Counted from the stretch's first letter, positions 1,601 to 35,884 are shown. The stretch: 35,993 bases of DNA from an uncultured Ruminococcus sp. (GCA_964424525.1 CAYRJG010000002.1:1-35993), one strand, 5' to 3'. Notes: generated from the letters alone by a model not told the origin. A program made the numbers and translations.

Positions 1601-1602
1601 GT

Positions 1603-2283: not shown

Positions 2284-2285
2284 AA

Positions 2286-4217: not shown

Positions 4218-4343
4218 TTGGCAAAAGCAGGGAATATCGCAGTTAGATGTCGCGAGCTTTATGATGCTCTCTGTGAAACAACTGCGATAGCATTACAGTA
4301 TAGACTAAATAAATTACGTATATGAAAAGAAAGGTTTACAAAA

Positions 4344-16200: not shown

Positions 16201-17127
16201 GTTCTGTTCTTTACCTCTCAGCAGACAGCTCTTCCCAACGGTATGGATCCCAATGGCGAAGGTAAGCTTATTGAGTCTTATATCGATGAGGGCGGAGAAG
16301 GAAGCTACGCTATTATAGACAACTCGAATGTTTATGGCTCTTATGTTCTCTCCGCAAAGCGCGGTATGCTTCTCTTCAATGATAGAAGCACAGTAGTTAT
16401 TCAGGACGAAATTTCTATGAATAACTCCTTCGAGGACGTTGTATGGGTAGCACACACTGCTCATAGAATCGTTATCGATGCTACCGGAAGAACTGCTTAC
16501 CTTATCAGTGAAGACCAGTGGGGCTTCCCGATCAGCACTCTTCGTGTTACTCTTGTTTCTGCTTTGAGCTCTTTGAAGTTTGAGGCACTTGATGCAACCA
16601 CTCCTATTCTTAAGGACACTGTTAAAAATGATTCTAACGAAATCGCACGTGACGGTATCAATAAGCTCGTAGTACGCGCTAACGGTGTGCTTGGTCTTAA
16701 TATGGCGGTTGTTATCGAAGAGGTCGAGAATGAGCAGGATTCCAAGGCGGTTGCTTACGAGTGGACCAATATGGATAACTGGGTAAATGTATTCTCTGCT
16801 GAAATCGTTGATGACGGTCTTGTAAGACGTGGCAAGGCAGTAAGAGCTGATATAGTTGACGAAACTCTTACCGCAGAGGTTATTTTCGATTCGGATTATT
16901 CATTTGAGAAGAGTTGCCAGGATTTCTACACCAGCCTTACAAATGTTGCTTATACTCTTAAGACCTTCAGCCCCGATACTTTCGGTCCTACCGACCTTGC
17001 TCTTCTTGAGGCTTATGAGGATTTCCAGGAGTATGAGGAAGAATTCGATGCTTACGCAGATTACGTAAACGAATGCATGGATGACGTGCTTAAGGCGATG
17101 AATGTATTCGTAGGTATTGAAGACTAA
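13216..17127 (+). CDS. Large secreted multidomain protein: LamG-like, copper-amine-oxidase-N-like and heparinase II/III-like (alpha/alpha toroid plus beta-sandwich) domains, with an acidic C-terminal tail
   Basis: 1303 aa with a GGGAGG RBS and a signal peptide ending FAWA/DD. The LamG-like module ends in FCLDNLQVYQG. A repeated NGE(I/L)V pattern (PTKINGEIVV ... ANVNGELVDL) looks like a Cu_amine_oxidN1-type domain. The motifs LAFAYQVTGDVNYAKLAYD, DWLHWGPGY, WNATCASG and YAPDGSYIESATYW, then GQLDSGNFVY...WFMDLGSDNYG, resemble heparinase II/III / alginate-lyase-like proteins. Confidence 0.6.
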   Translation: MKKSFLRIISLLLTIASLVSMFAIFAWADDEQNNDDIMTGESVENDESEEIITEDISGIEILYERDFEEGWEVDNGFTLTTNGHKMFVDYEELSDYSYNYFARFEATANVSEGKASLAFGARVAREKSTIISFSVKADDAASFSSAIMYMQTGGKVTRNILFISDKKLYAFSVGKDNLLADLSDNEWVDVTMVFDWSTPTSYVARAYVGEDFDVASPDVSLTQTVGTMTDGSPKTDTGIATYTISIPSAGNDKSAKVQDGMSFCLDNLQVYQGVANPVDREVIAEKGPGLNIDPLVAKTVEIKEGSGTKTAEQLLKEALCLKLGVPYALFKDERISIADDQLSDKDKYCVPTKINGEIVVSLQLILDFIGYPCFIHPDGQSFDITTGLSSTYITVGRDTANVNGELVDLTLAPGYLEGTDKLVIAMNDIPTIFSGWLVTYDEMGLIIMYEDTTDGEGGELITRENDLDTMLTMMKRFVFDTITTDEDGNDLAANEAYTANGKEVYNAVLSNTNFSHPYIYANQNDFDTLKDSFGGEDAKLNSYIQTIVDTAKGYYDDMAELDGDNNYSQIKEGKEPVNVYNDGLRPTGPNDTTVNDTENAYSDRGDLFEVEAVTEKLVYLAFAYQVTGDVNYAKLAYDMSLVIGDWLHWGPGYMVNCATATANFAVAYDWLYNIYFELYGQDGVDALAAIIYNKGIIHGYNASAGIACEFARPSGTGDHYITRTDSWNATCASGMIIGSLAIMENEQYRETTDYLIGNNLINLMNYGLDQYAPDGSYIESATYWSIGTNGLMKLIMALDSAAGKDFGLKDTWGIDSTFYYAIQIENSDGDEWNYHEDGVGSIKDGTALGVDTQMFNFAGYIFGDTKLFEVREAQIEKGKAVSIFDILFYPGEYEPSDVELALDYEMQGIDGFVSRSDWEEGGLYVGIMGGVNAYSPYTTKDTGDDQFGQLDSGNFVYANNGTTWFMDLGSDNYGAYNYFGSYRFRYYRNSAEGQNVLFFTSQQTALPNGMDPNGEGKLIESYIDEGGEGSYAIIDNSNVYGSYVLSAKRGMLLFNDRSTVVIQDEISMNNSFEDVVWVAHTAHRIVIDATGRTAYLISEDQWGFPISTLRVTLVSALSSLKFEALDATTPILKDTVKNDSNEIARDGINKLVVRANGVLGLNMAVVIEEVENEQDSKAVAYEWTNMDNWVNVFSAEIVDDGLVRRGKAVRADIVDETLTAEVIFDSDYSFEKSCQDFYTSLTNVAYTLKTFSPDTFGPTDLALLEAYEDFQEYEEEFDAYADYVNECMDDVLKAMNVFVGIED

Positions 17128-18666: not shown

Positions 18667-18873
18667 TGTGGCGTTCCTTTCTGAGTTTGATTTTGAAGAT
18701 GCAATATTATATAAACAAAAACATCCTAGGATAATTTTATCATATAGAGCTAAAAAAGTCAAGGATAATAACCAAAATATTACAATTATTAGCAGTTTAA
18801 ATATGGATTTATTTATGTTGTAAAACAAAAAAGAATGAGGTGCTTACTCTCAATAAATAAAGGAGATATAAAT

Positions 18874-19746
18874 ATGGTAGAGGACAGAACAACTATCTAT
18901 GAAAGCTTGCCTGTGCATATAACTAAGGAAATCAAAAGAATTGCGGCATCAAGACTCGGAGGAATCTCATCAATAGGCGAAATAAGACTCTGCGCAGGTC
19001 CGGCTTCGTCCATACTGTCGCACGGAGAAAGAATCTTTCTTGGCTTGCAAGTCACCACCGAAGAGATAGAGGCGGTTGTAAACAAGCTTTGCGAGGGAGC
19101 GCTTTACGCGCATCGAGAAACTCTTGCTGATGGATACATAAGCATTCGCGGTGGCGTGCGTGTAGGCGTTTGCGGTATGGCGAGATATGATTCGGAAAGA
19201 TTAATCGGTGTTACCGATGTCAGTTCCTTAATTTTTCGTATTCCATCGGGGGAATGCTCGGTGTCGGATGAGCTTTTTGATGCCTGGCGGAAAACCAAGA
19301 AAGGGATGCTGATTTATGCAAAGCCGGGAGGTGGAAAGACTACCGCGTTGCGCTCTCTCGTTTCGAGAATAGCACAAGGGCGCGAAGGCGAGCGCGTTGC
19401 GGTTGTGGACGAGCGATGTGAGTTTTCCGAAGAGGAATGTAGGCGGCTCGGAGTTCATCTTTTGCGAGGCTACAAACGCGGTTTGGGAATGGAGATAGCA
19501 CTTCGGACGGTAGCACCCGATGTAATTGCAGTAGATGAAATAGGCTCTAAAATGGAATCCGAAGGTATGCTCCAGTCGCTTTCATCGGGAGTGAAAATAC
19601 TCGCAACTGCCCATGCATCAAGTCGTGAAGGTCTTCTCTCAAGAGTCACGGCTGTACCGTTTTTTGAACGTGGAATTTTTGATATTTTGGTCGGAATATT
19701 TAACACGGATGGCACTTATCGGGTAGAAGTTGAGGAAATGCTATGA
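18874..19746 (+). CDS. spoIIIAA: Stage III sporulation protein AA (ATPase)
   Basis: AAAGGAG RBS before the ATG at 18874, Walker A KPGGGKTT and Walker B VIAVDEIG. It is the first gene of an eight-gene cluster with the canonical spoIIIA order. Confidence 0.9.
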   Translation: MVEDRTTIYESLPVHITKEIKRIAASRLGGISSIGEIRLCAGPASSILSHGERIFLGLQVTTEEIEAVVNKLCEGALYAHRETLADGYISIRGGVRVGVCGMARYDSERLIGVTDVSSLIFRIPSGECSVSDELFDAWRKTKKGMLIYAKPGGGKTTALRSLVSRIAQGREGERVAVVDERCEFSEEECRRLGVHLLRGYKRGLGMEIALRTVAPDVIAVDEIGSKMESEGMLQSLSSGVKILATAHASSREGLLSRVTAVPFFERGIFDILVGIFNTDGTYRVEVEEML

Positions 19747-20228
19747 TAAAATTCATCGGAATTACGATTATTCTTTCTGCTTCGCTTCTTTTGCGTGCCG
19801 AGCTGTCGCGCGCAAGACGCCGCAGGCTCCTTATCTGCGAAGAGCTATATAGGTTCGTTTTGCACATAAGGCATAGAATATCCTGCTTTCTTGCACCGCC
19901 CTCGGAGTTGTGCGAGGGATTCGAATCCGATGTTCTTTCGGAATGTGGTTTTCTTGAAAGCATGAAGTTTGGGGAGAGCCCGGCTTCGGGGTTCGAAAAA
20001 TCTCGAATATCAAACTCACTAAACGCGCAGGAAGCTAGAGTGCTTCAAGCCTTGTTTTCGGGTATTGGATGCGGGTATATGGAGGATGAGATAAAGCATA
20101 TAGATATGAAAAGCTCGGAATTTCTGGAGTTGCTTGTTTCAGAGCGCGCGGCAACCGAGCGCGACGTAAAGCTGATTGGAACGCTTACTGTTACCTTTAC
20201 TCTTGGTGCGGTAATACTCTTGATGTAA
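19743..20228 (+). CDS. spoIIIAB: Stage III sporulation protein AB
   Basis: 161 aa with an N-terminal TM helix. Its ATG overlaps the spoIIIAA stop (ATGA), and its position in the operon fits. Confidence 0.85.
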   Translation: MIKFIGITIILSASLLLRAELSRARRRRLLICEELYRFVLHIRHRISCFLAPPSELCEGFESDVLSECGFLESMKFGESPASGFEKSRISNSLNAQEARVLQALFSGIGCGYMEDEIKHIDMKSSEFLELLVSERAATERDVKLIGTLTVTFTLGAVILLM

Positions 20229-20287
20229 GATGAAGGCTCAATTAATCTGCTTTTGGGCTTTTATTAAAATGCGATTGGAGTTTAATT

Positions 20288-20482
20288 ATGGATGTATCTT
20301 TTATTTTGAAGATCGCGGGAATTGGTATGATAGTTGCTGTAAGCTGTCAGATCCTATCAAAGATTGGAAGAGATGAACAGGCAACGCTCATTTCGATTGC
20401 CGGGATAATTCTTGTTTTACTTTTGTTGGTAGGAGAGCTTGGCGAGCTTTTTGACACGGTTAAGGATGTGTTTGGACTTTGA
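20288..20482 (+). CDS. spoIIIAC: Stage III sporulation protein AC
   Basis: 64-aa two-TM protein (ILKIAGIGMIVAV...GRDEQATLISIAG), typical of SpoIIIAC. Confidence 0.9.
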   Translation: MDVSFILKIAGIGMIVAVSCQILSKIGRDEQATLISIAGIILVLLLLVGELGELFDTVKDVFGL

Positions 20483-20859
20483 TGGGGAATGCGATAACGC
20501 TCGGTATTGTAGCCGCAGTTTCGGCATTTTTGCTTCGCGGATTCGGGTGGAAGGGTGTACCCGTGTTCATTTCTGTGACGTTCATAGGCATAATTTTGCT
20601 TGCCGCACCCTACATATCGGAGATAGGTAATTTTATAAAATCTACCGCAGGGGAATACGGGGTGCTCGATGCTGCGAGTGCCATTTTGAAGGTAGTAGGT
20701 CTTGGATACCTTACAGGTATATCCGCGGACGTATGCCGAGAGCTTGAGTCCGGGATGCTGGCGAGTGCCGTTGTACTTCTTGGAAGAATAGAAATTATTG
20801 CCGTGGTCCTGCCTTTTTTTGAAGAAATCCTGAGGCTTGGAGGTGAGCTGATAGGATGA
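20482..20859 (+). CDS. spoIIIAD: Stage III sporulation protein AD
   Basis: About 125-aa polytopic membrane protein. Its ATG at 20482 overlaps the spoIIIAC stop (TGATG). An alternative in-frame TTG lies at 20479. Confidence 0.85.
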   Translation: MGNAITLGIVAAVSAFLLRGFGWKGVPVFISVTFIGIILLAAPYISEIGNFIKSTAGEYGVLDAASAILKVVGLGYLTGISADVCRELESGMLASAVVLLGRIEIIAVVLPFFEEILRLGGELIG

Positions 20860-21956
20860 AAAGAAAAATTCTTTTTGTGTTGCTTTGCTGTGTAATATTA
20901 ATCTCTCTTTTTTCAATATCGGCATTTGCTGACGGAGAAGATGATTATGCAGATGGTCTTCTTAAGGATTTTAACGAAATTATTCCCATCGAAAGCGGTG
21001 TTACAACAGGCGAAGAACTGATGGCGGATGTAGGATTTGAAACCTTGTTTTCGGATATTATAGCCGTTGTAAGCGGAGAGTGGAGCAGTATATTGTCTTT
21101 TTTTCTGATGCTTATGGGATTTGCCGTAATAATGGCGGTAAGTGACGGAGTATACGTTTCGGACAATCCTTTGCTTCGAAAAAATGTCAGCGCGGCAGTA
21201 GCCGCGATAGCATCTGTTTCGATTTTTACCGCACTTTACGGACTTATCGGCACGGTCAGAGATAGTCTTGAATCGGTTGTTGATTTCTTTTCCTCTCTCG
21301 TTCCGATAGTAACGGCAATCAGTGCCTCATCCGGGGCTGTGGGCACGGCTTCCGTTCAAGCAGTGAATATGAATATTACCCTCGCTGTTATTCAAAAATT
21401 TTGCACGGGCGCCCTCTTGCCCCTCGTTTTTGCTCTTTTTTCGCTTGCTCTTGCATCATCGCTTGGGGAAGGGAGTACATCTTCGGTTGCAAAGGGGATA
21501 AAGAATGCTTTTATGTGGGGCATCGGTATAATTTGTACCGTTCTTGCCGCCGCCATAGCTCTTCAAACGCTTTTGGCATCCGCGAAGGATACCGCCGCAC
21601 TTCGGGCGGCAAGATATGCGGCGTCGGGAATGATTCCGATAGTCGGAACTTCAATCGCATCGGCTCTTACAACTCTTGCAAGCGGACTTGCTTTTGTTAA
21701 AAGCACGGTTGGCGTCGGTGCGATAGCGGTAATCATATCTCTTGCTTTGGTGCCGCTGGTTTCAATTTTGCTTTATCGATTGGCTTTTTCAATAACGATT
21801 ATTTTCCTCGAATTTCTCGGTTCGGAGGGGGGCGTGCGTTGTTTTTCAGCTTTTAGAACGGCTCTTGATGCGCTTTTGGCTGTGTATTCGATTTCGGTTC
21901 TTATATGTATCGTTCAATTAATTGTATTCATAAAAAGCGGGGTGAGTGGCGCGTGA
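20856..21956 (+). CDS. spoIIIAE: Stage III sporulation protein AE
   Basis: 366 aa with a signal-like N-terminus followed by multiple TM helices. It is start/stop coupled to spoIIIAD. Confidence 0.9.
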   Translation: MKRKILFVLLCCVILISLFSISAFADGEDDYADGLLKDFNEIIPIESGVTTGEELMADVGFETLFSDIIAVVSGEWSSILSFFLMLMGFAVIMAVSDGVYVSDNPLLRKNVSAAVAAIASVSIFTALYGLIGTVRDSLESVVDFFSSLVPIVTAISASSGAVGTASVQAVNMNITLAVIQKFCTGALLPLVFALFSLALASSLGEGSTSSVAKGIKNAFMWGIGIICTVLAAAIALQTLLASAKDTAALRAARYAASGMIPIVGTSIASALTTLASGLAFVKSTVGVGAIAVIISLALVPLVSILLYRLAFSITIIFLEFLGSEGGVRCFSAFRTALDALLAVYSISVLICIVQLIVFIKSGVSGA

Positions 21957-22414
21957 GTGAATACATAATGAGTGTGGTTGCCGTCAGTCTGCTTTCCGCA
22001 CTTGCGGCATTTTTCTCTTACGGCGGCGCATCGGAGCGCGCGGTTCGTGCGGCAATAGCTATGATAATGATATATACGGTTTGCGTTCCCGCTGTAAGAC
22101 TTGTATCCGATTTTTCACCCGAGGATTTATCTGTTGAGGTTTCTGTTAATAAAGAAATTGCCGAAGGTGAATATCTGAATGTCGCAAAAAAAGCCTTTTG
22201 CGAGGGAGTGCGTTCATTTGTTGCCGATAGCTTTCATATAAATAAAGATGAAATTGAGGTAAATGCTGTCGATTTCGATTTTGAAAAAATGTGTGCGAAA
22301 AAAATTAAAATTAAACTGTGCGGTCGCTCGGCTATGGCGGATACCGACAGAATTCGGGATGCCGTAATCGATGCGGGGCTTGGTGATTGTGAGGTGAATA
22401 TTAAAATTGGTTGA
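21953..22414 (+). CDS. spoIIIAF: Stage III sporulation protein AF
   Basis: Two N-terminal TM helices and a soluble C-terminal domain. The GTG at 21953 overlaps the spoIIIAE stop (GTGA). The ATG at 21968 is an alternative start, and the ATG at 21905 in the track lies inside spoIIIAE. Confidence 0.75.
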   Translation: MSEYIMSVVAVSLLSALAAFFSYGGASERAVRAAIAMIMIYTVCVPAVRLVSDFSPEDLSVEVSVNKEIAEGEYLNVAKKAFCEGVRSFVADSFHINKDEIEVNAVDFDFEKMCAKKIKIKLCGRSAMADTDRIRDAVIDAGLGDCEVNIKIG

Positions 22415-22838
22415 TTCGTTTTTATCGCGTTTTAAAGGAAAATTCAAAGAAAAAAAGAAATTTTATACTGCTATTCTTCTTATAGGATTAGGATTAATGC
22501 TTATTGCTTTTTCCGCCGCTTCTTCGTCGGATTCCGGTGATGGATCGTCGGTGACGCTGGAGCAGTATAAAGCTAATCTGGAAGATGAGCTGGGTGAACT
22601 TTGCTCGTCAGTTCGCGGTGTAGGGAAGTGCAAGGTGATGATAACCTTCGAGCGCGGAGAGGAAAATACTTATAAAGGCTCGGCTTTGATAGAAAGTAAG
22701 CCACCGCGAGTTATGGGCGTGAGCGTTATATGCCGCGGGGCGGATTCCGATGAGGTAAAGCGCGAGCTTACAACTATGATATCGGCTCTTTTCGATATCG
22801 GAAGCAACAGAATTTCGATTCTGAAATTAAATTCATAA
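22407..22838 (+). CDS. spoIIIAG: Stage III sporulation protein AG
   Basis: 143 aa with a TTG start overlapping the spoIIIAF stop and a single TM helix. It has the conserved C-terminal ring-forming region (VRGVGKCKVMITFE...VMGVSVICRGA...ISALFDIGSNRISI). Confidence 0.85.
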   Translation: MVDSFLSRFKGKFKEKKKFYTAILLIGLGLMLIAFSAASSSDSGDGSSVTLEQYKANLEDELGELCSSVRGVGKCKVMITFERGEENTYKGSALIESKPPRVMGVSVICRGADSDEVKRELTTMISALFDIGSNRISILKLNS

Positions 22839-22985
22839 AAGCGGAATATCCGCAAATCGAAAAACATATTCTTAAATATCCGTAGGGAGTGCGCCGCACT
22901 GTGACGGCTTTGCATCGGACTGTAATGCGTAGGCCGTCAAGGATGCGTTTTTCTCTATGGGGAACAAAACAAGGAGAAATACACA

Positions 22986-23540
22986 ATGAAAACAGAAAAA
23001 ATCAAACAGTTCTTTTCATCCAGAAGCGGAAAAAGCGTCGTAGTCGTTGCGGCGGTGCTTCTTATCGGGCTTGCGGTATATCTTAACTACCGTTGGTTCT
23101 ACGATCCTCTTGAATCTCTCGGATATGGAGAGAATAATATGGAGAATAATTTCTCCGACAGTGAGCAGACCGGAGCAGAAACCTCCGATGGCGAAAACAA
23201 TTACTTTACTTCGACTGCGCTTTCTCGTGAACAGTCCCGCGATGAGGCGATAGACGTTCTTAAGCTCGTTACCGAAAATGCTTCGGCAACCGAGGAGGCA
23301 AAGGCGGAGGCGGCTGCAAAGATTTCGAAGATCGCAGTGGATATGCAGAATGAGGCTAATATTGAAACTCTCGTTAAAGCGAAGGGCTTTGAAGAGTGCG
23401 TAGCAATAATAAGCGACGACGCTGTAAGCGTTATAGTTAAGGCAGAGAGCCTTCAGGCAAATCAGGCAGCGCAGATTCTTTCCATAGTATACGAAACCAC
23501 CGGAGTTGATCCGAGAAACATAAGTATAATAAATAAATAA
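22986..23540 (+). CDS. spoIIIAH: Stage III sporulation protein AH
   Basis: 184 aa with an AAGGAGA RBS, an N-terminal TM helix and a C-terminal YscJ/FliF-like region (EANIETLVKAKGFEECVAIISDDAVSVIVKAESL). Confidence 0.85.
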   Translation: MKTEKIKQFFSSRSGKSVVVVAAVLLIGLAVYLNYRWFYDPLESLGYGENNMENNFSDSEQTGAETSDGENNYFTSTALSREQSRDEAIDVLKLVTENASATEEAKAEAAAKISKIAVDMQNEANIETLVKAKGFEECVAIISDDAVSVIVKAESLQANQAAQILSIVYETTGVDPRNISIINK

Positions 23541-23709
23541 TGATAAGATATTTCGACCAAAAGGGGGAGAGCTACGGCTTTCTCTCTTTTTTGTTGTTTT
23601 TCGTTTTTGGGTATTCGTTTTTTGCGTTTTTCTTAAATTTTGGTTATTTTCAATAAAATCCGCTGATAAAATTTGTATGTTCGGTGAGCATTAAGAGTAA
23701 AGTTTGCTA

Positions 23710-23738
23710 TTGACTTTTATGAATTAAAAAGATATAAT
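23710..23738 (+). promoter_or_regulatory. Sigma-A-type promoter (TTGACT, 17 nt spacer, TATAAT) for the repeat-lipoprotein cluster
   Basis: TTGACT at 23710-23715, a 17-nt spacer and TATAAT at 23733-23738, about 50 nt upstream of the ATG at 23787. Confidence 0.5.
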
Positions 23739-23786
23739 TATATTAGTTAAATATATCTAATACAAAAGAAAGGCAAGAATGGTATT

Positions 23787-25697
23787 ATGATGAAAAAGAT
23801 AGTTTGCTTGATTCTGGCTCTTGTCTGCGCTTTTGCACTCTTCGCTTGTGACGAGTGCACCGAGCACATTGACATAGCAGATGAGAACGGAGTGTGCGAC
23901 ATCTGTGGCACTAAGTACACGGATTGTGTGCACGCTGATGAGGACAAGGATGCGAGATGCGACAAGTGCAACGCAAAAGTTAACTGCGCAGAGTGCGTAG
24001 ATGCCGATGAGAACGGTGCTTGTGACGTATGCGCTAAAGAGGTTCCTTGCACGACTTGTAAGGACGCTGACAGGAACGGACTTTGCGACGTTTGCGGAGA
24101 AGCTGTTGCTTGCGAAACCTGCGTGGATAACGACAAGAACGCAAGATGCGATGCTTGCGGCAAAGCAGTTGCTTGCGAAACCTGCTCTGATGGGGACAAT
24201 AACAATTACTGCGATGTATGCGGTAAGTTCGTTCCTTGCGAGACCTGCGTAGATAATGACAAGAACGCTAAATGCGATGCTTGCGGTAAGCCCGTTGCTT
24301 GTGAGAGTTGCGTTGATGCAGATAAGAATACTTTCTGCGATGTATGCGGTAAGCCTGTTGCTTGCGAAGCTTGCGAGGATAACGATAAGAACTCCTACTG
24401 CGACGTATGCGGTAAGGAAGTTAAGTGCGATAAGCATGTTGACACCGATAAGAACGCATATTGCGATGCTTGCGGAACTGCAATCCCCTGCACAACCTGC
24501 AAGGATGCAGACAAGAATGCATTCTGTGACGTTTGCGGTAAGCCTGTTGAGTGCAACCCCTGTGTTGACGCTGACAGAACCGGTTACTGCGATGTATGCG
24601 GTAAGGAAGTTCCTTGTAACCCCTGCGTAGATGCGGATAAGAATTCCGTATGTGACGTATGTGGGAAAGACGTTAAAAACAAGGCGTGTGATGTTTGCGT
24701 AGATGCAGATAAGAACTTCCGTTGTGAGGTTTGCGGCAACATAATCGTTTGTGGAACTTGCGCAGATGAAGATAAGAACGGCAAGTGCGATACTTGCGGT
24801 GCTGACATTCCCTGTGATGCTTGTGTTGATGCAGATAAGAATACATACTGTGACGTATGCGGCAAGGGTCTTGCTTGCGAGGTTTGCGTAGATGCAGATA
24901 AGAATTCCTACTGTGACGTTTGCGGTAAGCCTGTTGCTTGCGAAGCTTGCGTAGATGCGGATAAGAATGCATACTGTGACGTTTGCGGTGAATTTATTGC
25001 TTGCGATCCCTGCATAAACCTCAACGGAGATTTCCTCTGTGATGTATGCGGTAGACCGCTTGAGTATAAGTGCTTGAAGCATAAGGATGAAAACGGAAAC
25101 GGTATATGTGAGATATGCGGTGAGCCGGTTAAGGACGTTATTGATGGCGAGGATGCAGAATTCTTTAATATGATAGCTTCCTCCACTCCGAACAAGATAA
25201 TCACTCAGTCCACTATTAACTATGCCGTTCTCGGTGAGATTTATAACGGTCGTTACGTTACCGTTCTTACAGATGGCGGATTTGAGTATGAGTATTACTA
25301 CGAGAAAGCAAGTGAACTTGATTTTGACGGTATGGCAGATTCTTACAAGCAGATCGTAGAGGGCGTAGTTTATTATGCCGGTGGTCGTTATTCTACTGAC
25401 GGCGAAACTTGGTTTGACGTAGCTCCTAATGTTCAGTATCTTTCTATGACATTTAATTTCAATGCCGATACCATTGGCGAGTATAAACTTGTCAGCGGAA
25501 ATAAAAACCTTCAAGCAACTATCGATAGAGAAGCGGTTAAGGCTATCTTCGGTCTTGATATAGATGCAGATACCTTTACTCTTGAGGTTAAGACCAACGG
25601 AAAGTATCTCAGTAACGTAGTGCTTGCGTACACTACTTCTAGCGGAGCAAGTGTAGAGATCAGTACCTCTTACACCTACGAGCCCGTAGCAGGTTGA
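23787..25697 (+). CDS. Uncharacterised lipoprotein with about 20 tandem 21-aa Cys/Asp-rich repeats and a C-terminal globular domain (paralog 1 of 3)
   Basis: 636 aa with a signal peptide and lipobox-like ALFAC at residues 17-21. The unit C-x2-C-V-D-A-D-K-N-x-x-C-D-V-C-G-K-x-V-x repeats every 21 aa up to about residue 448, followed by a non-repetitive tail of about 188 aa. Confidence 0.75.
   Translation: MMKKIVCLILALVCAFALFACDECTEHIDIADENGVCDICGTKYTDCVHADEDKDARCDKCNAKVNCAECVDADENGACDVCAKEVPCTTCKDADRNGLCDVCGEAVACETCVDNDKNARCDACGKAVACETCSDGDNNNYCDVCGKFVPCETCVDNDKNAKCDACGKPVACESCVDADKNTFCDVCGKPVACEACEDNDKNSYCDVCGKEVKCDKHVDTDKNAYCDACGTAIPCTTCKDADKNAFCDVCGKPVECNPCVDADRTGYCDVCGKEVPCNPCVDADKNSVCDVCGKDVKNKACDVCVDADKNFRCEVCGNIIVCGTCADEDKNGKCDTCGADIPCDACVDADKNTYCDVCGKGLACEVCVDADKNSYCDVCGKPVACEACVDADKNAYCDVCGEFIACDPCINLNGDFLCDVCGRPLEYKCLKHKDENGNGICEICGEPVKDVIDGEDAEFFNMIASSTPNKIITQSTINYAVLGEIYNGRYVTVLTDGGFEYEYYYEKASELDFDGMADSYKQIVEGVVYYAGGRYSTDGETWFDVAPNVQYLSMTFNFNADTIGEYKLVSGNKNLQATIDREAVKAIFGLDIDADTFTLEVKTNGKYLSNVVLAYTTSSGASVEISTSYTYEPVAG
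23856..25130 (+). repeat. In-frame 63-nt (21-codon) imperfect tandem repeat array, about 20 units
   Basis: Counted by hand from the translation. An exact 31-nt duplicate, TGCGGTAAGCCTGTTGCTTGCGAAGCTTGCG, occurs at 24345-24375 and 24921-24951. Confidence 0.85.
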
Positions 25698-25743
25698 TTC
25701 GGGATTTCGTAAAACAAGCCAAGGTTTGAAAGGAAAAAACGTA

Positions 25744-27507
25744 ATGAAGAAGATTTTAATGATGATTCTCGCGCTTGCGCTTGCTTGCTCGGCGATGTTC
25801 GTCTTTGCTTCCTGCGATGATGAACCGGTTGCGTGTACTCACGCAGATGCCGACAAGGATCATAAGTGCGACAGTTGTGGAGAAGATTTTACAGAAACCT
25901 GCATAGAGCATGTCGATGAAAATGCAGACGGAAAATGTGATTACTGCGAAGCTGACGTTGAAGTTGAAGCGGAGTGTGAGCATGTTGACAATAACAAGGA
26001 TGCCAAGTGCGATAAGTGCGGTGAGGCGGTTGCATGCGAAACCTGTGTTGATGAAAATCCGCTTGATGCAAAGTGTGACGTTTGCGGCAAAACTGTTAAT
26101 TGTGAAGCACACAGGGATATTGCTCCTATGGATGCAAAATGTGATGTTTGCGGCAAGGCAATAGCTTGCAAGACTCACGCAGATGAAAACAAGGATGCAA
26201 AATGTGACATCTGCGGCAAGACCGTTGAGTGCGATGTTCACAGTGACAGAGATAGAAATGCAGTCTGTGATGTCTGCGGCGAGGAACTCGCTTGCGAGGT
26301 TTGCGTAGATGCAGATAAGGATCAGAAATGTGATGTTTGCGGTGGCGAAGTTGCTTGCGAAAATCATACCGATAAGAATCTTGACGGTAAGTGCGACAAG
26401 TGCGGTGCAGATGTTGAGATTTCCGAAGATCCCAAGGATCCCTCCGATAAACAGCCCGAAGCACCCGACGACTCAGGTTGTGAGCACGTAGACGGAAATC
26501 TTGATAAGAAATGTGACGAGTGCGGAAAAAATTATATCGGTGCTTGTGTAATTCATTTTGACAGAAATAAGGATTTCGTGTGCGATTACTGTGACGAAGA
26601 GCTTGATAAAGAATGTAAAGTTCATATCGACGTTAACGGTGACTTTAAGTGCGATAACTGTGATATAAAGGTTGAATGTAATCATGCGGATGTTAATCCT
26701 GCTGACGGAAGATGCGATTTCTGTTCTGCTGAGGTTGAGTGTAAGGATTGTATAGATGCAGACGGAGATGCAAAGTGTGACGTATGCGGTGGAATCGTTG
26801 AATGCGAGGTTTGCGTGGACTCTAACGGTGACAACAAGTGCGACAAGTGTGAAGCAAGACTTGATGCAGACCGTGGAATAGAGGCTACTCTTGAAGCATA
26901 TAAGAACAGTACTCCGACTAAAGTTGTGACTAATACTACTATTGATTTCCTTGATCTTGATACAGAGAGAGAGGCAACATATACTCTTACTACAAACAGA
27001 GTTCTTATTACAGGTTCTATTGACGGCAAGATTGCAACTGTTATGACCACCGTAATTGATAAAATCAGATACGTATCTGACGGTGCAACCGATGTTGTTC
27101 AGGATTTCTATGAGTCTATTGTTTCTACCGAAGAGTTCCTTCAGGGTTCCGGTTCACGTACCGACGGAAAGCGTTGGAAGGCAGACGGACTTAACTTTGC
27201 TCCCGCTGCAAGAAGAATTACTCCCAATCTTGATGCTGAAATTCTTAAGAGAGTAAAGTATTACGAGGCTCTTTATAACAATACACTTACATTTACTGTT
27301 GCTGCTGAAGATGTTGATGAAGTTTTTGGTGATGAGAAAATCGTTACTGATAGCGATGTTCGCGTTACTATCGTTAATAACGGAGCGGCTGTAACTTCTA
27401 TAACCATTGAATACTCAAGAGAGAGCGATGACCTCTATCCTGCACAAAGAATAGTTATGACCACCGAATACTCTTACGATATTCAGAAGGTTGAGCTTCT
27501 TTATTAA
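25744..27507 (+). CDS. Uncharacterised lipoprotein with about 15 tandem Cys/His/Asp-rich repeats and a C-terminal globular domain (paralog 2 of 3)
   Basis: The ATG at 25744 gives MKKILMMILALALACSAMFVFASC (lipobox-like FASC). The track ORF starts at an upstream TTG at 25726. The repeats have the form C-x(1,2)-[H/C]-x-D-x(3)-[D/N]-x-x-C-D-x-C-G, with one acidic/Pro linker, followed by a non-repetitive tail of about 214 aa. Confidence 0.75.
   Translation: MKKILMMILALALACSAMFVFASCDDEPVACTHADADKDHKCDSCGEDFTETCIEHVDENADGKCDYCEADVEVEAECEHVDNNKDAKCDKCGEAVACETCVDENPLDAKCDVCGKTVNCEAHRDIAPMDAKCDVCGKAIACKTHADENKDAKCDICGKTVECDVHSDRDRNAVCDVCGEELACEVCVDADKDQKCDVCGGEVACENHTDKNLDGKCDKCGADVEISEDPKDPSDKQPEAPDDSGCEHVDGNLDKKCDECGKNYIGACVIHFDRNKDFVCDYCDEELDKECKVHIDVNGDFKCDNCDIKVECNHADVNPADGRCDFCSAEVECKDCIDADGDAKCDVCGGIVECEVCVDSNGDNKCDKCEARLDADRGIEATLEAYKNSTPTKVVTNTTIDFLDLDTEREATYTLTTNRVLITGSIDGKIATVMTTVIDKIRYVSDGATDVVQDFYESIVSTEEFLQGSGSRTDGKRWKADGLNFAPAARRITPNLDAEILKRVKYYEALYNNTLTFTVAAEDVDEVFGDEKIVTDSDVRVTIVNNGAAVTSITIEYSRESDDLYPAQRIVMTTEYSYDIQKVELLY
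25834..26862 (+). repeat. In-frame tandem repeat array of about 63 nt per unit, about 15 units, interrupted by one linker
   Basis: Repeat units were counted from the translation. The linker ISEDPKDPSDKQPEAPDDSG lies between units 9 and 10. Confidence 0.8.
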
Positions 27508-27530
27508 TCAAAGGATAGGAGAAAGAAAAT

Positions 27531-29363
27531 ATGAAAAAGATTTTAGCTATCATTTTGGCTTTGTCCTGCGCCTTTGCATTGTTTGCATGCGGTAAAGAAG
27601 CGTGCGCGGTTTGCGTGGATGAAGATAAGAACTGTTTGTGCGATGAATGTGAGCGAATCATCGATTGCGTAGATGAAGATGCTGACGAGAAATGCGATGT
27701 ATGCGGCAAGGATGTTCAGCCTGCCCCCGAATGCACCGAGCACAAGGATGAAAACAAAAATGACCGTTGCGATATCTGCGACTTGAACCTCAAGACCGGT
27801 GGATGCAAAGCTCATTTTGACATGGATAAAGACGGCAAGTGCGATACCTGTGAAGCTGATATAGCTTGTAACGTTCATTATGATGAAGACAAAGACGGAA
27901 AATGTGATGTTTGTGATGCTACTGTGAAGTGCACCGCGCACATTGATACAGTTAAGGACGGAAAATGTGACGTTTGTGAAACCGTTATTGCTTGTACTGT
28001 TCATTACGATGCAAACAAGGATGGTAAATGTGACGTTTGTGCTTCTGCTGTAAAATGCACCGAGCACGTTGACGTTGATAAGAACGGACGTTGTGATGTT
28101 TGTACAGAAAATGTAGTTTGCTACATTCACCTTGATGAAAACAAAAACGGTAAGTGTGATGCTTGCGGCGAGAGCGTAATTTGCACCGAGCATTATGATG
28201 CAAATAAGGACAGTGTATGTGACATTTGTTCCGATAAGCTTCCTTGCACCAATCATTCTGATACCGATAAAAATCAGTTATGCGATAAATGCGGTGCGGC
28301 TGTAGAGTGCAACCACTTTGACGGAATCAAGGATGCCGTGTGTGATTTCTGTGGAGAGGCACTTCCTTGTATCCACGTTGATGCTGATAAAAACGCTGTT
28401 TGCGACGTTTGTAAGAAGGCTATCCCTTGTGCTATTCACGCTGACGTAGACGATGATGGTAAGTGCGATGTATGCGGCAACGATTACAGATGTGTAGTAT
28501 GCGTTGATGTAAACAAGGATCTCAAGTGCGATTATTGCGGTGGCGAAATTGAGTGTGCTCACTTCGATGGCAATAAAGATGCTAAATGCGATATATGCAA
28601 AGAGGCGGTTGCATGCAAAGAGCACTTTGATCTTGTAAAAGATAACAAGTGCGATGTTTGTGGTGAAAATGTTCCTTGTAACGTTCATATTGACGTTGTA
28701 AAAGACGGTAAGTGTGATATCTGCGGTACCGAAGTTCCTCTTATTTGTGTTGATCACGTTGATGCAAATTCGGATTCACTTTGCGATATTTGTAAGATAG
28801 ATATGAGCAAGCTTTCCGATAATAATGCAAGTGAAACATCCGGTTACACCAATTATGAGATTCTCGCAGAGGATTTCATCAATGCTATGGAAAACGCTGA
28901 TTGCAGCTCCGTAACCGTTGAGGTTTCGAAGGGCAACGATACATACGCATTCTATAACACTGTTTATAATGCTGACGGCTCTTATGTAATGTATTACGTT
29001 TATCCTACCATTTCCGAAGATATCTTTGCTGAAAATGAAGTTGAATTCGTAGAAGGCGAATTGACCTTCGATAAGGATGGCAACCTCATCTCCGGTGATG
29101 CTGATGCTGCTTCTACTGTGGGCGCAAACGGTGTTCGCGCAGATCTGTCGAGTAAGAAGATCGAGAATTTCAAGATCGATGGAAACGGCCTTGCAATCTT
29201 TGTAGCAGCTGAAGATTCTGCTGAAATTCTTGGTGTAGAGCTTGCAAGTGATGCTACTGTCGTAGTATTTATCGATGATGCAGGTGCAATTGCTTCTCTT
29301 TCACTCAATTATGTAGATGCTGAAGGTGATACCGTTATCATCATCTGCTCCTACGAAAATTAA
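27531..29363 (+). CDS. Uncharacterised lipoprotein with about 19 tandem Cys/His/Asp-rich repeats and a C-terminal globular domain (paralog 3 of 3)
   Basis: 610 aa with a GGAGAAAG-type RBS and a signal peptide with ALFAC at residues 16-20. The repeats are mostly C-x2-H-x-D-x-x-K-D-G-K-C-D-V-C, followed by a non-repetitive tail of about 185 aa. Confidence 0.75.
   Translation: MKKILAIILALSCAFALFACGKEACAVCVDEDKNCLCDECERIIDCVDEDADEKCDVCGKDVQPAPECTEHKDENKNDRCDICDLNLKTGGCKAHFDMDKDGKCDTCEADIACNVHYDEDKDGKCDVCDATVKCTAHIDTVKDGKCDVCETVIACTVHYDANKDGKCDVCASAVKCTEHVDVDKNGRCDVCTENVVCYIHLDENKNGKCDACGESVICTEHYDANKDSVCDICSDKLPCTNHSDTDKNQLCDKCGAAVECNHFDGIKDAVCDFCGEALPCIHVDADKNAVCDVCKKAIPCAIHADVDDDGKCDVCGNDYRCVVCVDVNKDLKCDYCGGEIECAHFDGNKDAKCDICKEAVACKEHFDLVKDNKCDVCGENVPCNVHIDVVKDGKCDICGTEVPLICVDHVDANSDSLCDICKIDMSKLSDNNASETSGYTNYEILAEDFINAMENADCSSVTVEVSKGNDTYAFYNTVYNADGSYVMYYVYPTISEDIFAENEVEFVEGELTFDKDGNLISGDADAASTVGANGVRADLSSKKIENFKIDGNGLAIFVAAEDSAEILGVELASDATVVVFIDDAGAIASLSLNYVDAEGDTVIIICSYEN
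27603..28805 (+). repeat. In-frame tandem repeat array of about 63 nt per unit, about 19 units
   Basis: Repeat units were counted from the translation. Confidence 0.8.
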
Positions 29364-29385
29364 TTAAAATAGTTCTCATAGAGAA

Positions 29386-29432
29386 CAAAAAATCAGCCCG
29401 ATTTCAATTTGAAATCGGGCTGATGCTTTTTT
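29386..29432. terminator. Bidirectional rho-independent terminator after the lipoprotein cluster
   Basis: 14-bp stem TCAGCCCGATTTCA (29392-29405) / TGAAATCGGGCTGA (29409-29422), flanked by an A-run upstream and TGCTTTTTTT downstream. Confidence 0.85.
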
Positions 29433-33098: not shown

Positions 33099-33845
33099 TT
33101 ATTTTTTGAATACAAACAAGTATTCGTGAGCAATCAAAAGGAAATTGTACTTTATGCTATTAGTTTTCCAATATCCTGTAGCTTGACAATTATGCTGTTC
33201 TTTAATTATGATTTCCTTGAGCTTAAATCCTGCAAGCTGAAACATCGTCATAGTTTCAAATGCGAGGGGTTGTACCATACCTTTTTTACGTGTATCGCCC
33301 ATAAGTATAACGCAGAATTTATCTTTCTTCAATACTCTGAAAGATTCCTCGGCAACTTTATATATTTCGGGCAAAAATGCTTTCATATCAAGATGTGACA
33401 AGTCACCCTCGATGCCCTCACTATATTGAATAATATCTGCATACGGGGGGTGTGTGCAAATAAGGTCAATCGATTCATTGGGCAAATCCAGAGTTCTGGC
33501 ATCACATAACCTTATTGTAGTGGTGCAAGGTGTTTCAAACTCAAAATTGCACTTTTTCGTAGAAAGGGCAACGGCATCGGGGTTTATATCAAAGCCGATA
33601 AAGTTACGGTGAGTTAATCTTGCTTCAACTGCGGTTGTGCCACCACCTACAAACTGATCTAATACGGTATCACTCTCGGCTGAATATCTCAAAATAACGT
33701 TTCTCGGAATGTAAGGTGACCAATTTCCGCGATATTTTGCATCGTGTGTAGCCCATTTGCCGCGATTAGGGAACGCCCAAACAGTATTTGTTTCAAGTTC
33801 AAAGTTTTCGGGCTGTAACGGAATGTTCTTTGCCATATTATTCAC
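33099..33845 (-). CDS. SAM-dependent DNA methyltransferase (N6-adenine/N4-cytosine type), second methylase of the R-M cassette
   Basis: 248 aa with the SAM-binding motif VLDQFVGGGTTAVEA, followed by GFDINPDAV and the catalytic-type motif LICTHPPYADI. It overlaps the endonuclease stop by 8 nt (GTG at 33845; alternative ATG at 33836). Confidence 0.75.
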   Translation of the reverse strand: MNNMAKNIPLQPENFELETNTVWAFPNRGKWATHDAKYRGNWSPYIPRNVILRYSAESDTVLDQFVGGGTTAVEARLTHRNFIGFDINPDAVALSTKKCNFEFETPCTTTIRLCDARTLDLPNESIDLICTHPPYADIIQYSEGIEGDLSHLDMKAFLPEIYKVAEESFRVLKKDKFCVILMGDTRKKGMVQPLAFETMTMFQLAGFKLKEIIIKEQHNCQATGYWKTNSIKYNFLLIAHEYLFVFKK

Positions 33846-34629
33846 CGAATATTGTAGAAATTATTTCATCCAAAATACCTGATTTTGTCATATTGTAGTT
33901 TAAAAGGTAATGGATGTATGTAAATCCTTTCGTCAATTGATTGGTAGTTCCGGTCCAACAATTACCATCGGTAATAAGTATAAAGCCAATACCGTTTTCC
34001 ATCAAATTTGCTTGTCTATTTATGTAAGAATCAATAATTTCTTCGGGTTTCGAACCACCGCCATTAAAGAAATTAACCTCTATATTAATGCATTTTTGCC
34101 CTTTGATTAAAATAAAATCGGCTTTTCTGTTAGCGATATCATCGGAGATTTCAAACCCCTTTTCTCGTAAAACCTTGAACTGTTTTTGAGTAAAATATGT
34201 TACACCATATTTTTGACAAACTTCTTGGATTATTGGTTCGCAAGCCAATTCAAACGCAGATCCGCCTCTGTTTTTTCTGCCGTTAGAGTCCAATCCAACC
34301 AATATTCCGGTAATATAATCAAGAGTACTTTTTTCTATTAAGTTTTGGTAAAGATTTTTTAAACCCATTTGTTTAAAAAATGATAAAAATTCACAAATTT
34401 GTTCGTCGGATAAATTGTTTTGTCCACAGAAATTAACCTTCTGCACATCTTCTCCACCAATTTCACTACCGATTATTTGTAATAACATACCTTCTTTGCG
34501 TACTTCGTTTCTCTCGATTTTTGACAATGCAAATAAGTAAGGAAATACTTCGACAACAGAAGGAATCTTCTTTAAAAGTTTAACAAATAAATCGTCAAAG
34601 TCATCAATTTTACCGATTAAGCAGTCCAA
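33838..34629 (-). CDS. DpnII/MboI-family (GATC-type) type II restriction endonuclease, apparently N-terminally disrupted
   Basis: The motifs GLDSNGRKNRGGSAFE and ADFILIKG...INIEVNFFNGGGSK and ILITDGNCW match my recollection of the DpnII family. The open frame begins only at a TTG with no RBS. Homologous-looking sequence continues upstream past an in-frame TAA (see findings). Confidence 0.65.
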   Translation of the reverse strand: MDCLIGKIDDFDDLFVKLLKKIPSVVEVFPYLFALSKIERNEVRKEGMLLQIIGSEIGGEDVQKVNFCGQNNLSDEQICEFLSFFKQMGLKNLYQNLIEKSTLDYITGILVGLDSNGRKNRGGSAFELACEPIIQEVCQKYGVTYFTQKQFKVLREKGFEISDDIANRKADFILIKGQKCINIEVNFFNGGGSKPEEIIDSYINRQANLMENGIGFILITDGNCWTGTTNQLTKGFTYIHYLLNYNMTKSGILDEIISTIFGE

Positions 34630-34784
34630 GGCGTGAATTTCAACAAAATACTTTTTGTGATCAGATATATTTTCCCAATTAACATAATAATTAAAACCTC
34701 TATTGGTTTCAACTAATTGTCTTTAAAAGAAATCCAATCTTTCTTCAATACTTTTTTCAAAATACATAGGTGTATAATTCTCCC

Positions 34785-35855
34785 TTAGTAATTTTTAATT
34801 AAAAGTTCCTTTATTTTGCCACGAGAAGAAGCTTTACTGTTTATCATACGTGAAGCATCCACTCTTAATATTGTGAAATCGGTATACAAGTCATCAAAGA
34901 AATTATCGTTTTCATCAACGTTATGAGGATCGGAATTACTTAACATAACCTTTGCTCCCATTGCGGAAAGTTCTTTATACATATCAGCAAGTTCAATCTG
35001 ATTTTGATCGTTGAATTGATCTTCCGTATATGAAGTAAAGCCCGAAGTGGCGTTTAAAGGACGATACGGGGGATCGATATAAACAAAGGTGTTTTCATCG
35101 GTAAAACTCAATACATCGTGATAGTCGCATGAACGCATAATTACGTTTTGCAGAACTTCGGATATTTTGAGTAAATTCTCCGTATCACATATAGTCGGGT
35201 TTGAGTGCTTGCCAAAAGGTACGTTATAACAACCTTTTTTATTAACACGATACAAGCCATTAAAACAGGTTCTATTTATGAAGATAAACAAAGCGGCCTT
35301 TTCAATGCGAGTATCATCATTCAAATTTAGAGTATTGTATCTGTCGCGCTGTTCATAGTAATATACTTGCTTTTCTTCATTGTTCGTACAAGCATTATAT
35401 TTACTTTGCATATCAGCAAGCATTTGTATCAAATCGCCGCAACAATCTTTAATAACGGAGTAAGAATTAATGAGCTCTTTATTGTTATCGCTAATGTATA
35501 CTTCTTCGAAAGAGCATTCCGAAAGTAACGCAAAGAGCAAAGCACCACCACCTACAAAAGGCTCGGCGTATTTTGTAATAGTTGTTCCCATACCCTCGGG
35601 CAAGTTTGATTTTAAAACCTCTAAAAGCTGACCTTTGCCACCAGCCCATTTTACAAAAGGACGAGCAGACTCCGAACGCTTTACAGGCTTTGACTTTCTT
35701 GCATCATCGGGTTTTTCGGCATTTCGAGGAATAATCCACATATTTCCAAGCATAGCAACATCGGGGATTCTGTTTTCAGCGCAAAGAATGGATACTCGCC
35801 TTTGCGATATATTCCACTTTTCTGCAGCTTCTCTTGCGGTTATATATTGTAACAT
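34785..35855 (-). CDS. Dam-family (alpha-class) N6-adenine DNA methyltransferase with an N-terminal HTH domain
   Basis: AGGAGG RBS 4 nt before the ATG at 35855. The N-terminal segment YITAREAAEKWNISQRRVSILCAENRIPDVAMLGNMWIIP is an excisionase/MerR-like HTH. It is followed by the Dam motifs FVKWAGGKGQLL, EPFVGGGALLF and YIDPPY. Confidence 0.85.
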   Translation of the reverse strand: MLQYITAREAAEKWNISQRRVSILCAENRIPDVAMLGNMWIIPRNAEKPDDARKSKPVKRSESARPFVKWAGGKGQLLEVLKSNLPEGMGTTITKYAEPFVGGGALLFALLSECSFEEVYISDNNKELINSYSVIKDCCGDLIQMLADMQSKYNACTNNEEKQVYYYEQRDRYNTLNLNDDTRIEKAALFIFINRTCFNGLYRVNKKGCYNVPFGKHSNPTICDTENLLKISEVLQNVIMRSCDYHDVLSFTDENTFVYIDPPYRPLNATSGFTSYTEDQFNDQNQIELADMYKELSAMGAKVMLSNSDPHNVDENDNFFDDLYTDFTILRVDASRMINSKASSRGKIKELLIKNY

Positions 35856-35884
35856 AGTTCCTCCTAAAAACATGGGTTGTATAT

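Follow-up and report, generated by a model that had tools for sequence, protein, structure and literature searches.

Tandem Cys/His repeats, probable zinc sites, as a candidate length-variable stalk in three lipoproteins of an uncultured Ruminococcus sp.

Stalk repeats and fibrillar adhesins of Gram-positive bacteria, including the Zn-dependent G5-E repeats of SasG and Aap, are arrays of variable copy number that lead from an anchor to a head (PMC8286594, PMC9210967). The stalk domains known from these systems are Ig-like or other beta-sandwich domains of 70-100 residues and contain no Cys. For short Cys knuckles, the closest described systems are the zinc-ribbon and rubredoxin-type knuckles, such as the Cys4 or Cys3Asp lid of Gram-positive adenylate kinase, LIM and RING, in which two C-x2-C-type knuckles supply four ligands. 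Here we describe a repeat that resembles both groups, encoded in a stretch of 35,993 nucleotides (nt) from an uncultured Ruminococcus sp. (GCA_964424525.1 CAYRJG010000002.1:1-35993; the whole stretch is hereafter called the window). Three co-oriented paralogous genes, p1, p2 and p3, located directly downstream of the spoIIIA sporulation operon, encode lipoproteins in which a Cys/His unit of about 21 residues is repeated 20, 15 and 19 times, respectively, between the lipobox and a C-terminal head. We propose that each unit is a Cys/His metal site, most likely for zinc, and that the array serves as a stalk; the probability of this reading is estimated at roughly 0.65.

The repeat resembles several known systems in part. 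With the zinc-ribbon-type knuckles it shares the four ligands on two knuckles, a second knuckle that reads C-D-x-C-G, and the tolerance of Cys/His interchange. It differs from them in the inter-knuckle loop, which is just 8 residues long, acidic and without a beta-ribbon, in its tandem (up to 40 units) and extracytoplasmic arrangement, and in one ligand that is movable to a His two residues before the third ligand, C3. The DnaJ cysteine-rich domain, with four CxxCxGxG motifs and two Zn, likewise contains short Cys knuckles ending in Gly around structural zinc, but it is cytoplasmic, its motifs are fixed at four and its sites are made from non-adjacent motifs, whereas the present unit appears self-contained, exported and open-ended in copy number. 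The repeat also resembles the 'calcium wire' repeats of thrombospondin type 3 (TSP3), and in both Excalibur and TSP3 a Cys directly follows the loop, as it does here; the Cys-to-His swaps in the repeat, however, argue against disulfides of the TSP3 style. With the Dx[DN]xDG loops as a class (EF-hand, dockerin, TSP3, and Excalibur with DxDxDGxxCE), the repeat has in common D/N at positions 1, 3 and 5, a later acidic residue and the extracellular setting (PMC3123361, for the motif), but Gly at position 6 is in the minority, His occupies this position in most units of the family, and Glu is absent from position 12. Compared with the beta-sandwich stalk domains, the beads are of 19-21 residues and presumably held by metal through Cys/His. 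Both the zinc-knuckle chemistry and the surface-stalk role are of known kinds. As far as our searches reach, what is new is a self-contained bead of about 20 residues, probably stapled by zinc, with a movable ligand and used in long extracellular arrays by anaerobic Clostridia; the repeat was described in no paper found by our literature searches.

The units of p1-p3 (1,833 residues in total) were aligned by regular expression and by hidden Markov model (HMM), giving the common pattern C1-x2-[C/H]-x-D-x-[DN]-x-[DN]-x-x-C3-D-x-C4. The second ligand, ligand 2, is Cys or His in all 54 units, C3 and C4 are kept in all 54, and C1 in 53. A first-pass annotation, made by a model from the DNA, had counted ligand 2 approximately, and its figures turned out to be exact: Cys in 16 of the 20 units of p1, and His in 11 of the 15 units of p2 and in 16 of the 19 units of p3. 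The interval that it gave for the repeats, 23856-28805, begins at the first C1 of p1 and stops slightly beyond the last C4 of p3. Its central observation, that His takes the place of Cys at one fixed position, is borne out by the alignment, since both share a column that precedes a near-invariant Asp by two residues and C3 by 9 (by 10 in four units with a one-residue insertion). This column makes up 54 of the 1,833 residues, and 31 of the 32 His of the three proteins fall in it, a concentration far exceeding chance. The remaining His, in p2, is located at +7, two residues before C3 (DKDHKC), which is the alternative ligand position of the relatives described below. The short spacing C-x-H is limited to His units (8 of 31, as against none of the 22 with Cys; Fisher p=0.015). 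The units of p1 mostly contain four Cys, three Cys and one His are found in 31 of the 54 units, and the Cys content reaches 51-79 per protein.

For the relatives, a word-indexed search returned 141 homologues, and an HMM scan of 1.84 billion representative sequences with a four-unit profile matched 1,078 proteins at E<=1e-3, of which 403 reached E<=1e-10 and 77 reached E<=1e-30. Repeat proteins are as long as 4,687 amino acids (aa), and the highest unit count in a single protein was 40. All the named hosts are metagenome-assembled genomes (MAGs) labelled 'Clostridia bacterium', a taxonomy that rests on few names, and a search for related loci with p1 gave two Clostridia MAG loci, one of them from deer cecum. 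The hosts of the repeat are thus likely to be gut anaerobes.

Among 120 homologues, ligand 2 is Cys in 455 units, His in 300, Asp in 8 and another residue in about 18, so that the substitutions are largely confined to residues able to bind metal. Exactly two Cys/His stand upstream of C3, giving four ligands in all, in 668 of 856 units and in 1,232 of 1,628 units (76-78%). The positions that supply them vary: in about 250 relatives the arrangement is C1-x2-C, C1-x2-H, C1-x-H, or no C1 together with a His at +7. The commonest type among the 1,628 units of the representatives is C-x6-H-x-C3-x2-C4 without C1 (630 units), followed by C1-x2-H (203), H...H-x-C-x2-C (162) and the all-Cys C1-x2-C (30), so that the unit type of the window differs from the commonest one. 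The near-invariance of C1, C3 and C4 that had been noted at first pass therefore holds in the window, but it does not extend to C1 in the family as a whole. C1 and His(+7) are mutually exclusive (odds ratio 0.05, p ~1e-111, uncorrected for shared ancestry), although p-values of this kind overstate the number of independent events, because the two types are found mostly in different proteins. We take the split to represent two old solutions to one four-ligand requirement, and not hundreds of events. At a finer scale, the state of ligand 2 differs in 18% of nearest-neighbour units, compared with a random expectation of 40%, and a swap between orthologs was detected at one unit (CTVC... at aa 136 of protein P0005, CTVH... 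at aa 136 of P0025); judging from these alignments, several independent Cys/His swaps do occur. As a side observation, one relative of 1,106 aa (P0100) carries at aa 894-1106 units of the type without C1 (type II) in alternation with the motif H-x-A-x-x-G-x-H-x-C-x-x-C, followed by a dockerin, indicating that the repeat is also used in cellulosome-type proteins and that further unit variants are possible.

The four ligands belong to one unit, since the arrays open with C1 and close with C4. In 90.5% of 2,142 units, a stretch of 8 residues (standard deviation 0.4) separates ligand 2 from C3, while 4 to more than 50 residues lie between units. A metal site formed between neighbours, from C3 and C4 of one unit and C1 and C2 of the next, was considered and rejected in view of the array ends, of the fixed spacing within and variable spacing between units, and of the type-II units without C1. 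Within orthologous trios, the Cys/His state of the terminal units is kept (HHCCCCCHH in the p1 ortholog), while the window proteins have amplified internal units, of the Cys type in p1 and of the His type in p2 and p3; this amplification accounts for the different Cys/His ratios of the three paralogues. At the DNA level, the p1 array is repetitive with a period of 63 nt and one of 126 nt, the copies being 71-86% identical.

This pattern of conservation points to metal coordination. Where the Cys at ligand 2 is lost, a His takes over, in that column or in a second fixed one, and no partner Cys is ever lost in compensation, as expected for a metal site and not for disulfides; Cys/His interchange of this sort is typical of structural zinc, as in zinc fingers. 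The first-pass annotation had likewise preferred metal to disulfides, and this preference gains support from four Cys/His being kept while their positions move, from the odd numbers of Cys and from the swaps between orthologs. In the model that we propose, each unit would be a tiny metal-stapled bead around one tetrahedral ion, most likely Zn2+, with the four ligands supplied by the knuckles C1-x1-2-(C/H)2 and C3-D-x-C4-G and with the fixed 8-residue acidic loop between them. Beads in tandem would make a semi-rigid, cysteine-dependent stalk with a length set by the copy number, which would keep the C-terminal head at a distance from the lipid anchor and carry it through the wall of an anaerobic Gram-positive cell. 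For the conserved D/N loop, two roles can be envisaged: binding of a second ion (Ca2+), or no more than giving the loop its shape and charge. That metal is bound, that the metal is zinc, and that the array is a spacer are points that we infer. Regulated disulfide formation is generally missing from Firmicutes, whose exported proteins avoid Cys (PMC2823432); the 51-79 Cys of each lipoprotein are unusual for this reason, and they fit a life without oxygen.

The position of the arrays agrees with a role as a stalk. In 126 of 244 proteins a lipobox, identified by pattern, is followed by the array within 80 aa; in 6 more the array comes after a signal or transmembrane segment, and another 24 carry it directly ahead of a C-terminal transmembrane helix, making a total of 156 anchor-adjacent arrays among the 244. 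In one protein of this set the array is placed before a dockerin. The heads are unrelated to each other, including Flg_new, LRR_5 (leucine-rich repeats of the BspA type), SLH, CW_binding_2, NlpC/P60, phosphodiesterase, metallophosphatase, cohesin, dockerin and DUF6273. The copy number also varies between related loci, the 20, 15 and 19 units of the window trio corresponding to 9, 9 and 8 units in loci L003-L005 and to 0, 7 and 9 units in loci L006-L007. The first paralogue of L006 (5963-6706, 247 aa) has no Cys/His array, and a low-complexity linker of Gly, Asp, Glu and Pro joins its lipobox to the head. In three other relatives (P0265, P0266 and P0268), the same head, 33-44% identical to that of p1, is located almost directly on the lipobox. 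The array is thus an optional module of variable length that adjoins the anchor and occurs irrespective of the type of head, and it is therefore stalk- or spacer-like. A role as a length-variable stalk adjoining the membrane anchor is likely on this architecture, and such a stalk would cross the cell wall. This role is an addition to the first-pass annotation, the interpretation of which, taken as a whole, is partly supported.

Several points weigh against the zinc-held stalk. About 8-10% of units hold three Cys/His only, and the overstated p-values for C1 and His(+7), mentioned above, belong to the same side. The stalk or spacer between anchor and head fits the architecture, and it is from the architecture that it is proposed. 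Placed outside the cytoplasm, Zn(Cys)4 sites would be sensitive to oxygen, and they are uncommon there. In addition, no curated zinc-finger model or solved structure was matched significantly in Pfam, NCBIfam, PDB or Foldseek searches. Scans of p1-p3, of single units and of double units against Pfam and NCBIfam gave nothing above threshold, the best Pfam matches being zf-C3HC4_3 (26.2 bits, cut-off 27) and Prok-RING_4 (22.7 bits, cut-off 27), with DZR, ADK_lid, HMBD and C2H2 also below threshold. Sequence matches in PDB, with p1 and the four-unit profile as queries, were to CBL RING and LIM at E>=0.0075, and Foldseek with an AlphaFold2 model of four units gave the TFIIB and NrdD ribbons, PHD and LIM at E>=3. 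All of these weak matches are to zinc modules and in this respect favour zinc, but as leads and not as tests; the Foldseek result is otherwise taken as uninformative, and Cys identity may drive its matches. The four-unit model itself, built from a 27-row alignment of in-register fragments, is of moderate confidence (predicted local distance difference test, pLDDT, 69); each C3-x2-C4-G knuckle forms the tip of a tight hairpin with a beta-bridge, which is compatible with the predicted knuckles, but is not a proof of them. PF27309, matched on two homologues, was considered as an existing model of the repeat and rejected, as it is MJ0753_N and the match is 'faint' only.

Among the alternatives, the one that survives best is a bead with two metals, in which each unit would hold one Zn through Cys/His and one Ca2+ in the loop D-x-[DN]-x-[DN]-x-x-C-D, in the manner of EF-hand, dockerin and TSP3; we consider it possible but doubtful. 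An EF-hand-like loop with D/N at positions 1, 3, 5 and 9 and Gly at position 6 had been proposed at first pass, and its acidic part stands at more than 90% each. In the 50 window units whose loop has the canonical 8 residues, D stands at position 1 in 49, D/N at position 3 in 46 and D/N at position 5 in 49, and position 9, directly after C3, is D/E in all 54 units. The Gly part does not stand, because position 6 is Gly in 15 of the 50 units (30%), Ala in 13 and Ser in 5, and the proposed 'DKNG' consensus overstates it. When the family is aligned on the ligands alone, conservation is 91-95% for D(+2), 87-93% for D/N(+4), 93-97% for D/N(+6) and 92-96% for D(+10), nearly as high as that of the Cys, so that the acidic pattern calls for an explanation of its own, and sub-threshold matches to EF-hand_1/5/6 and Dockerin_1 were obtained on His-type units. 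The later acidic ligand needed by Dx[DN]xDG sites (PMC3123361) is supplied by position 9. However, Gly was present at position 6 in every metal-binding Dx[DN]xDG motif surveyed (PMC3123361), as against 30% of the window units and 44% of the type-I units of the family, and in the dominant type-II units position 6 is the His ligand (1,032 such units, selected by requiring His at +7, which is loop position 6), which appears to be the fourth ligand of zinc. The bidentate Glu at position 12 is missing, the residue there being Gly; the EF-hand, TSP_3, Excalibur and dockerin models are all below threshold; and N-G or D-G may simply be favoured beta-turns before a zinc knuckle, as the LIM match would suggest. 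With Gly in the minority and His in its place in the commonest type, we consider binding of Ca2+ by such a non-canonical loop a tentative proposal with the odds against it. The D/N loop would otherwise serve for shaping, through Asx turns and N-G or D-G turns before the knuckle, and for charge. Unlikely, in our estimate, is the fullest form of the two-metal proposal, with Zn2+ in the movable tetrad, Ca2+ in a Gly-less DxDxN...D loop, and up to 40 beads forming a rigid wall-crossing rod that would depend on anoxia, be sensitive to O2 and chelators, be confined to strict anaerobes and represent a fold class without a solved representative.

The remaining alternatives are far less probable. A surface metal sponge, that is, buffering, storage or detoxification of Zn, Cd or Cu in the manner of metallothionein and without a structural role, agrees with the dozens of Cys/His sites per protein and with sub-threshold matches to HMBD (heavy-metal-binding domain) and TRASH. 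We consider it improbable on account of the rigid geometry of the unit, with its 8-residue loop in 90.5% of cases, the conservation of non-ligand residues, and the consistent placement of the arrays between an anchor and many unrelated functional heads; nor do metal transport or resistance genes adjoin the trio in the gene annotation of the window. Marginally less probable again are redox-active iron beads, rubredoxin-like Fe(Cys)4 or Fe(Cys)3His sites that would form an extracellular electron conduit or a tether sensing oxygen or redox state. The C-x2-C ... C-x2-C-G knuckles are indeed rubredoxin-like, with a weak PknG_rubred match, the hosts are likely strict anaerobes with available Fe2+, and arrays reach 40 units; but the Cys3His and Cys2His2 sets that dominate the family are those usual in structural zinc sites, not in rubredoxins; orthologs can do without the array or have a disordered linker in its stead, and it is fused to unrelated heads, as a spacer and not a wire would be; and no redox-partner genes neighbour the repeat lipoproteins in the window annotation. 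Least probable of all, and very unlikely, is a disulfide-knotted extracellular repeat of the TSP3, EGF or LDL-A style, with structural cystines and no thiolate metal, because this reading, for which the extracellular setting, the richness in Cys, the acidic loops and the four Cys of most p1 units speak, fits poorly with three Cys plus His in 31 of the 54 window units and in the large majority of family units, with loss of the ligand-2 Cys never paired with loss of a partner Cys, with His replacing Cys at both a fixed and an alternative column, and with hosts that are uncultured and probably anaerobic Clostridia, the Firmicutes being generally without a disulfide-forming system (PMC2823432).

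The heads of p1-p3 (185-214 aa, without His and with almost no Cys) are homologous to those of 16 relatives, and no sequence match was obtained for them in Pfam, NCBIfam or PDB, including a PDB search with a head profile. In the AlphaFold2 model of the p1 head (pLDDT 79.6; predicted template-modelling score 0.77), a helix is followed by long antiparallel strands. Foldseek against PDB matched this model to S. aureus SAOUHSC_02783 (4eg9 among the matches), M. tuberculosis LprG (3mh8), LolB/LolA and Csa1, with E from 1e-5 to 1e-3 and a probability of 1.0, but with template-modelling scores of 0.4-0.5 only, root-mean-square deviations of 7-9 A and sequence identities of 8-14%. With moderate confidence, the head is predicted to have an LprG/LolA-like lipoprotein fold and possibly to bind a hydrophobic ligand. 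With LprG, LolA, LolB and the tandem lipoproteins of staphylococci (Csa1, SAOUHSC_02783), the head alone would share the predicted N-terminal helix and open antiparallel half-barrel, and tandem paralogue encoding is common to the trio and Csa1; unlike p1-p3, the known members carry no Cys/His repeat stalk.

The window belongs to a spore-forming Firmicute of the Clostridia type, and its spoIIIAA-AH operon is complete. The features of the locus are listed in Table 1. Each of the three proteins begins with a basic/hydrophobic signal peptide closed by a pattern-based lipobox (...ALFAC in p1, with Cys21, ...VFASC in p2 and ...ALFAC in p3), and the array begins within a few residues of it. The open frame of p2 starts at TTG 25726, but ATG 25744, which lies behind a ribosome-binding site (AAAGGA) and is also the first codon of the database protein P0006, is most likely the start. 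The linker in the p2 array, acidic and Pro-rich, is located at about 26419-26481 (aa 226-246 from ATG 25744) and divides the array into 9 and 6 units.

Table 1. Positions of the lipoprotein trio, its repeat arrays and associated features in the window
Feature	Position	Strand	Description
p1	23787..25697	+	636-aa lipoprotein: signal peptide, lipobox Cys21, 20 units, 187-aa Cys- and His-free C-terminal head
p2	25744..27507	+	587-aa lipoprotein counted from ATG 25744: 15 units, 214-aa head
p3	27531..29363	+	610-aa lipoprotein: 19 units, 185-aa head
p1 repeat array	23856..25118	+	aa 24-444, 20 units; ligand 2 is Cys in 16, His in 4
p2 repeat array	25831..26850	+	15 units; ligand 2 is Cys in 4, His in 11; interrupted by linker EISEDPKDPSDKQPEAPDDSG
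p3 repeat array	27603..28793	+	19 units; ligand 2 is Cys in 3, His in 16; C1 absent from one unit
p1 C-terminal head	25134..25694	+	predicted LprG/LolA/LolB-like alpha+beta half-barrel (AlphaFold2, Foldseek)
spoIIIAA-AH sporulation operon	18835..23540	+	Pfam: Spore_III_AA, AB, AC/AD, AE, SpoIIIAH; conserved upstream neighbour of the trio
Terminator-like hairpin 3' of spoIIIAH	23559..23590	+	14-base-pair stem, then T run; divides the sporulation operon from the lipoprotein trio
Putative sigma-70-like promoter of the trio	23710..23738	+	TTGACT-17-TATAAT, 11/12 consensus matches; putative function
Terminator-like hairpin closing the three-gene operon	29392..29424	+	15-base-pair stem with 7 GC pairs, then T run

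The trio looks like an operon of its own, because a hairpin follows spoIIIAH, a promoter-like site precedes p1 and a second hairpin follows p3, all identified by consensus matches. It is located directly 3' of spoIIIAH in at least three different genomes (window 18835-29424; L003 1278-9845; L006 1153-9140). The order spoIIIA-then-trio is also found in loci L003-L007, with PfkB just upstream of the spoIIIA operon in two of the genomes. In view of this conserved place, a direct role in sporulation was considered, but it was not concluded, on account of the sigma-70-like promoter of the trio and the terminator 5' of it. A gene cluster at 221-5516 (+) encodes an HMGL-like enzyme (citrate/homocitrate synthase type), a GntR/FCD regulator, aconitase and an isocitrate/isopropylmalate dehydrogenase. 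The dehydrogenase of this cluster is found downstream of the trio in L003, indicating that the flanks have been rearranged while the spoIIIA-trio junction was kept. Two adjacent open reading frames, 9971-13201 and 13216-17127 (+), encode proteins of 1,076 and 1,303 aa with signal-peptide-like N-termini and zero Pfam or NCBIfam matches; possibly, these are uncharacterised proteins that are secreted or displayed at the surface. At 33099-35873 (-), a DpnII-type restriction-modification cassette consists of the DpnII endonuclease and two methylases, one N6/N4 and one Dam-like of the D12 class; it is located in the part of the window with the lowest GC (0.34 versus about 0.44), which suggests acquired DNA.

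If the proposal is true, a new self-contained metal-binding repeat of about 20 aa, with about 1,000 members and neither a curated model nor a solved structure, would be added to the known ones. Its movable ligand, C1 in some units and His(+7) in others, would offer a clean natural experiment in the evolution of a metal site, and short metal-stapled rigid spacers could serve protein engineering. Recognition of the repeat would help to annotate many large surface proteins now labelled 'hypothetical' in Clostridia of the rumen and gut, among them adhesins, enzymes and proteins bearing cohesin or dockerin. If the beads bind zinc, strictly anaerobic gut Clostridia would build their surface stalks from extracellular thiolate-metal mini-domains, a design unavailable to aerobes.

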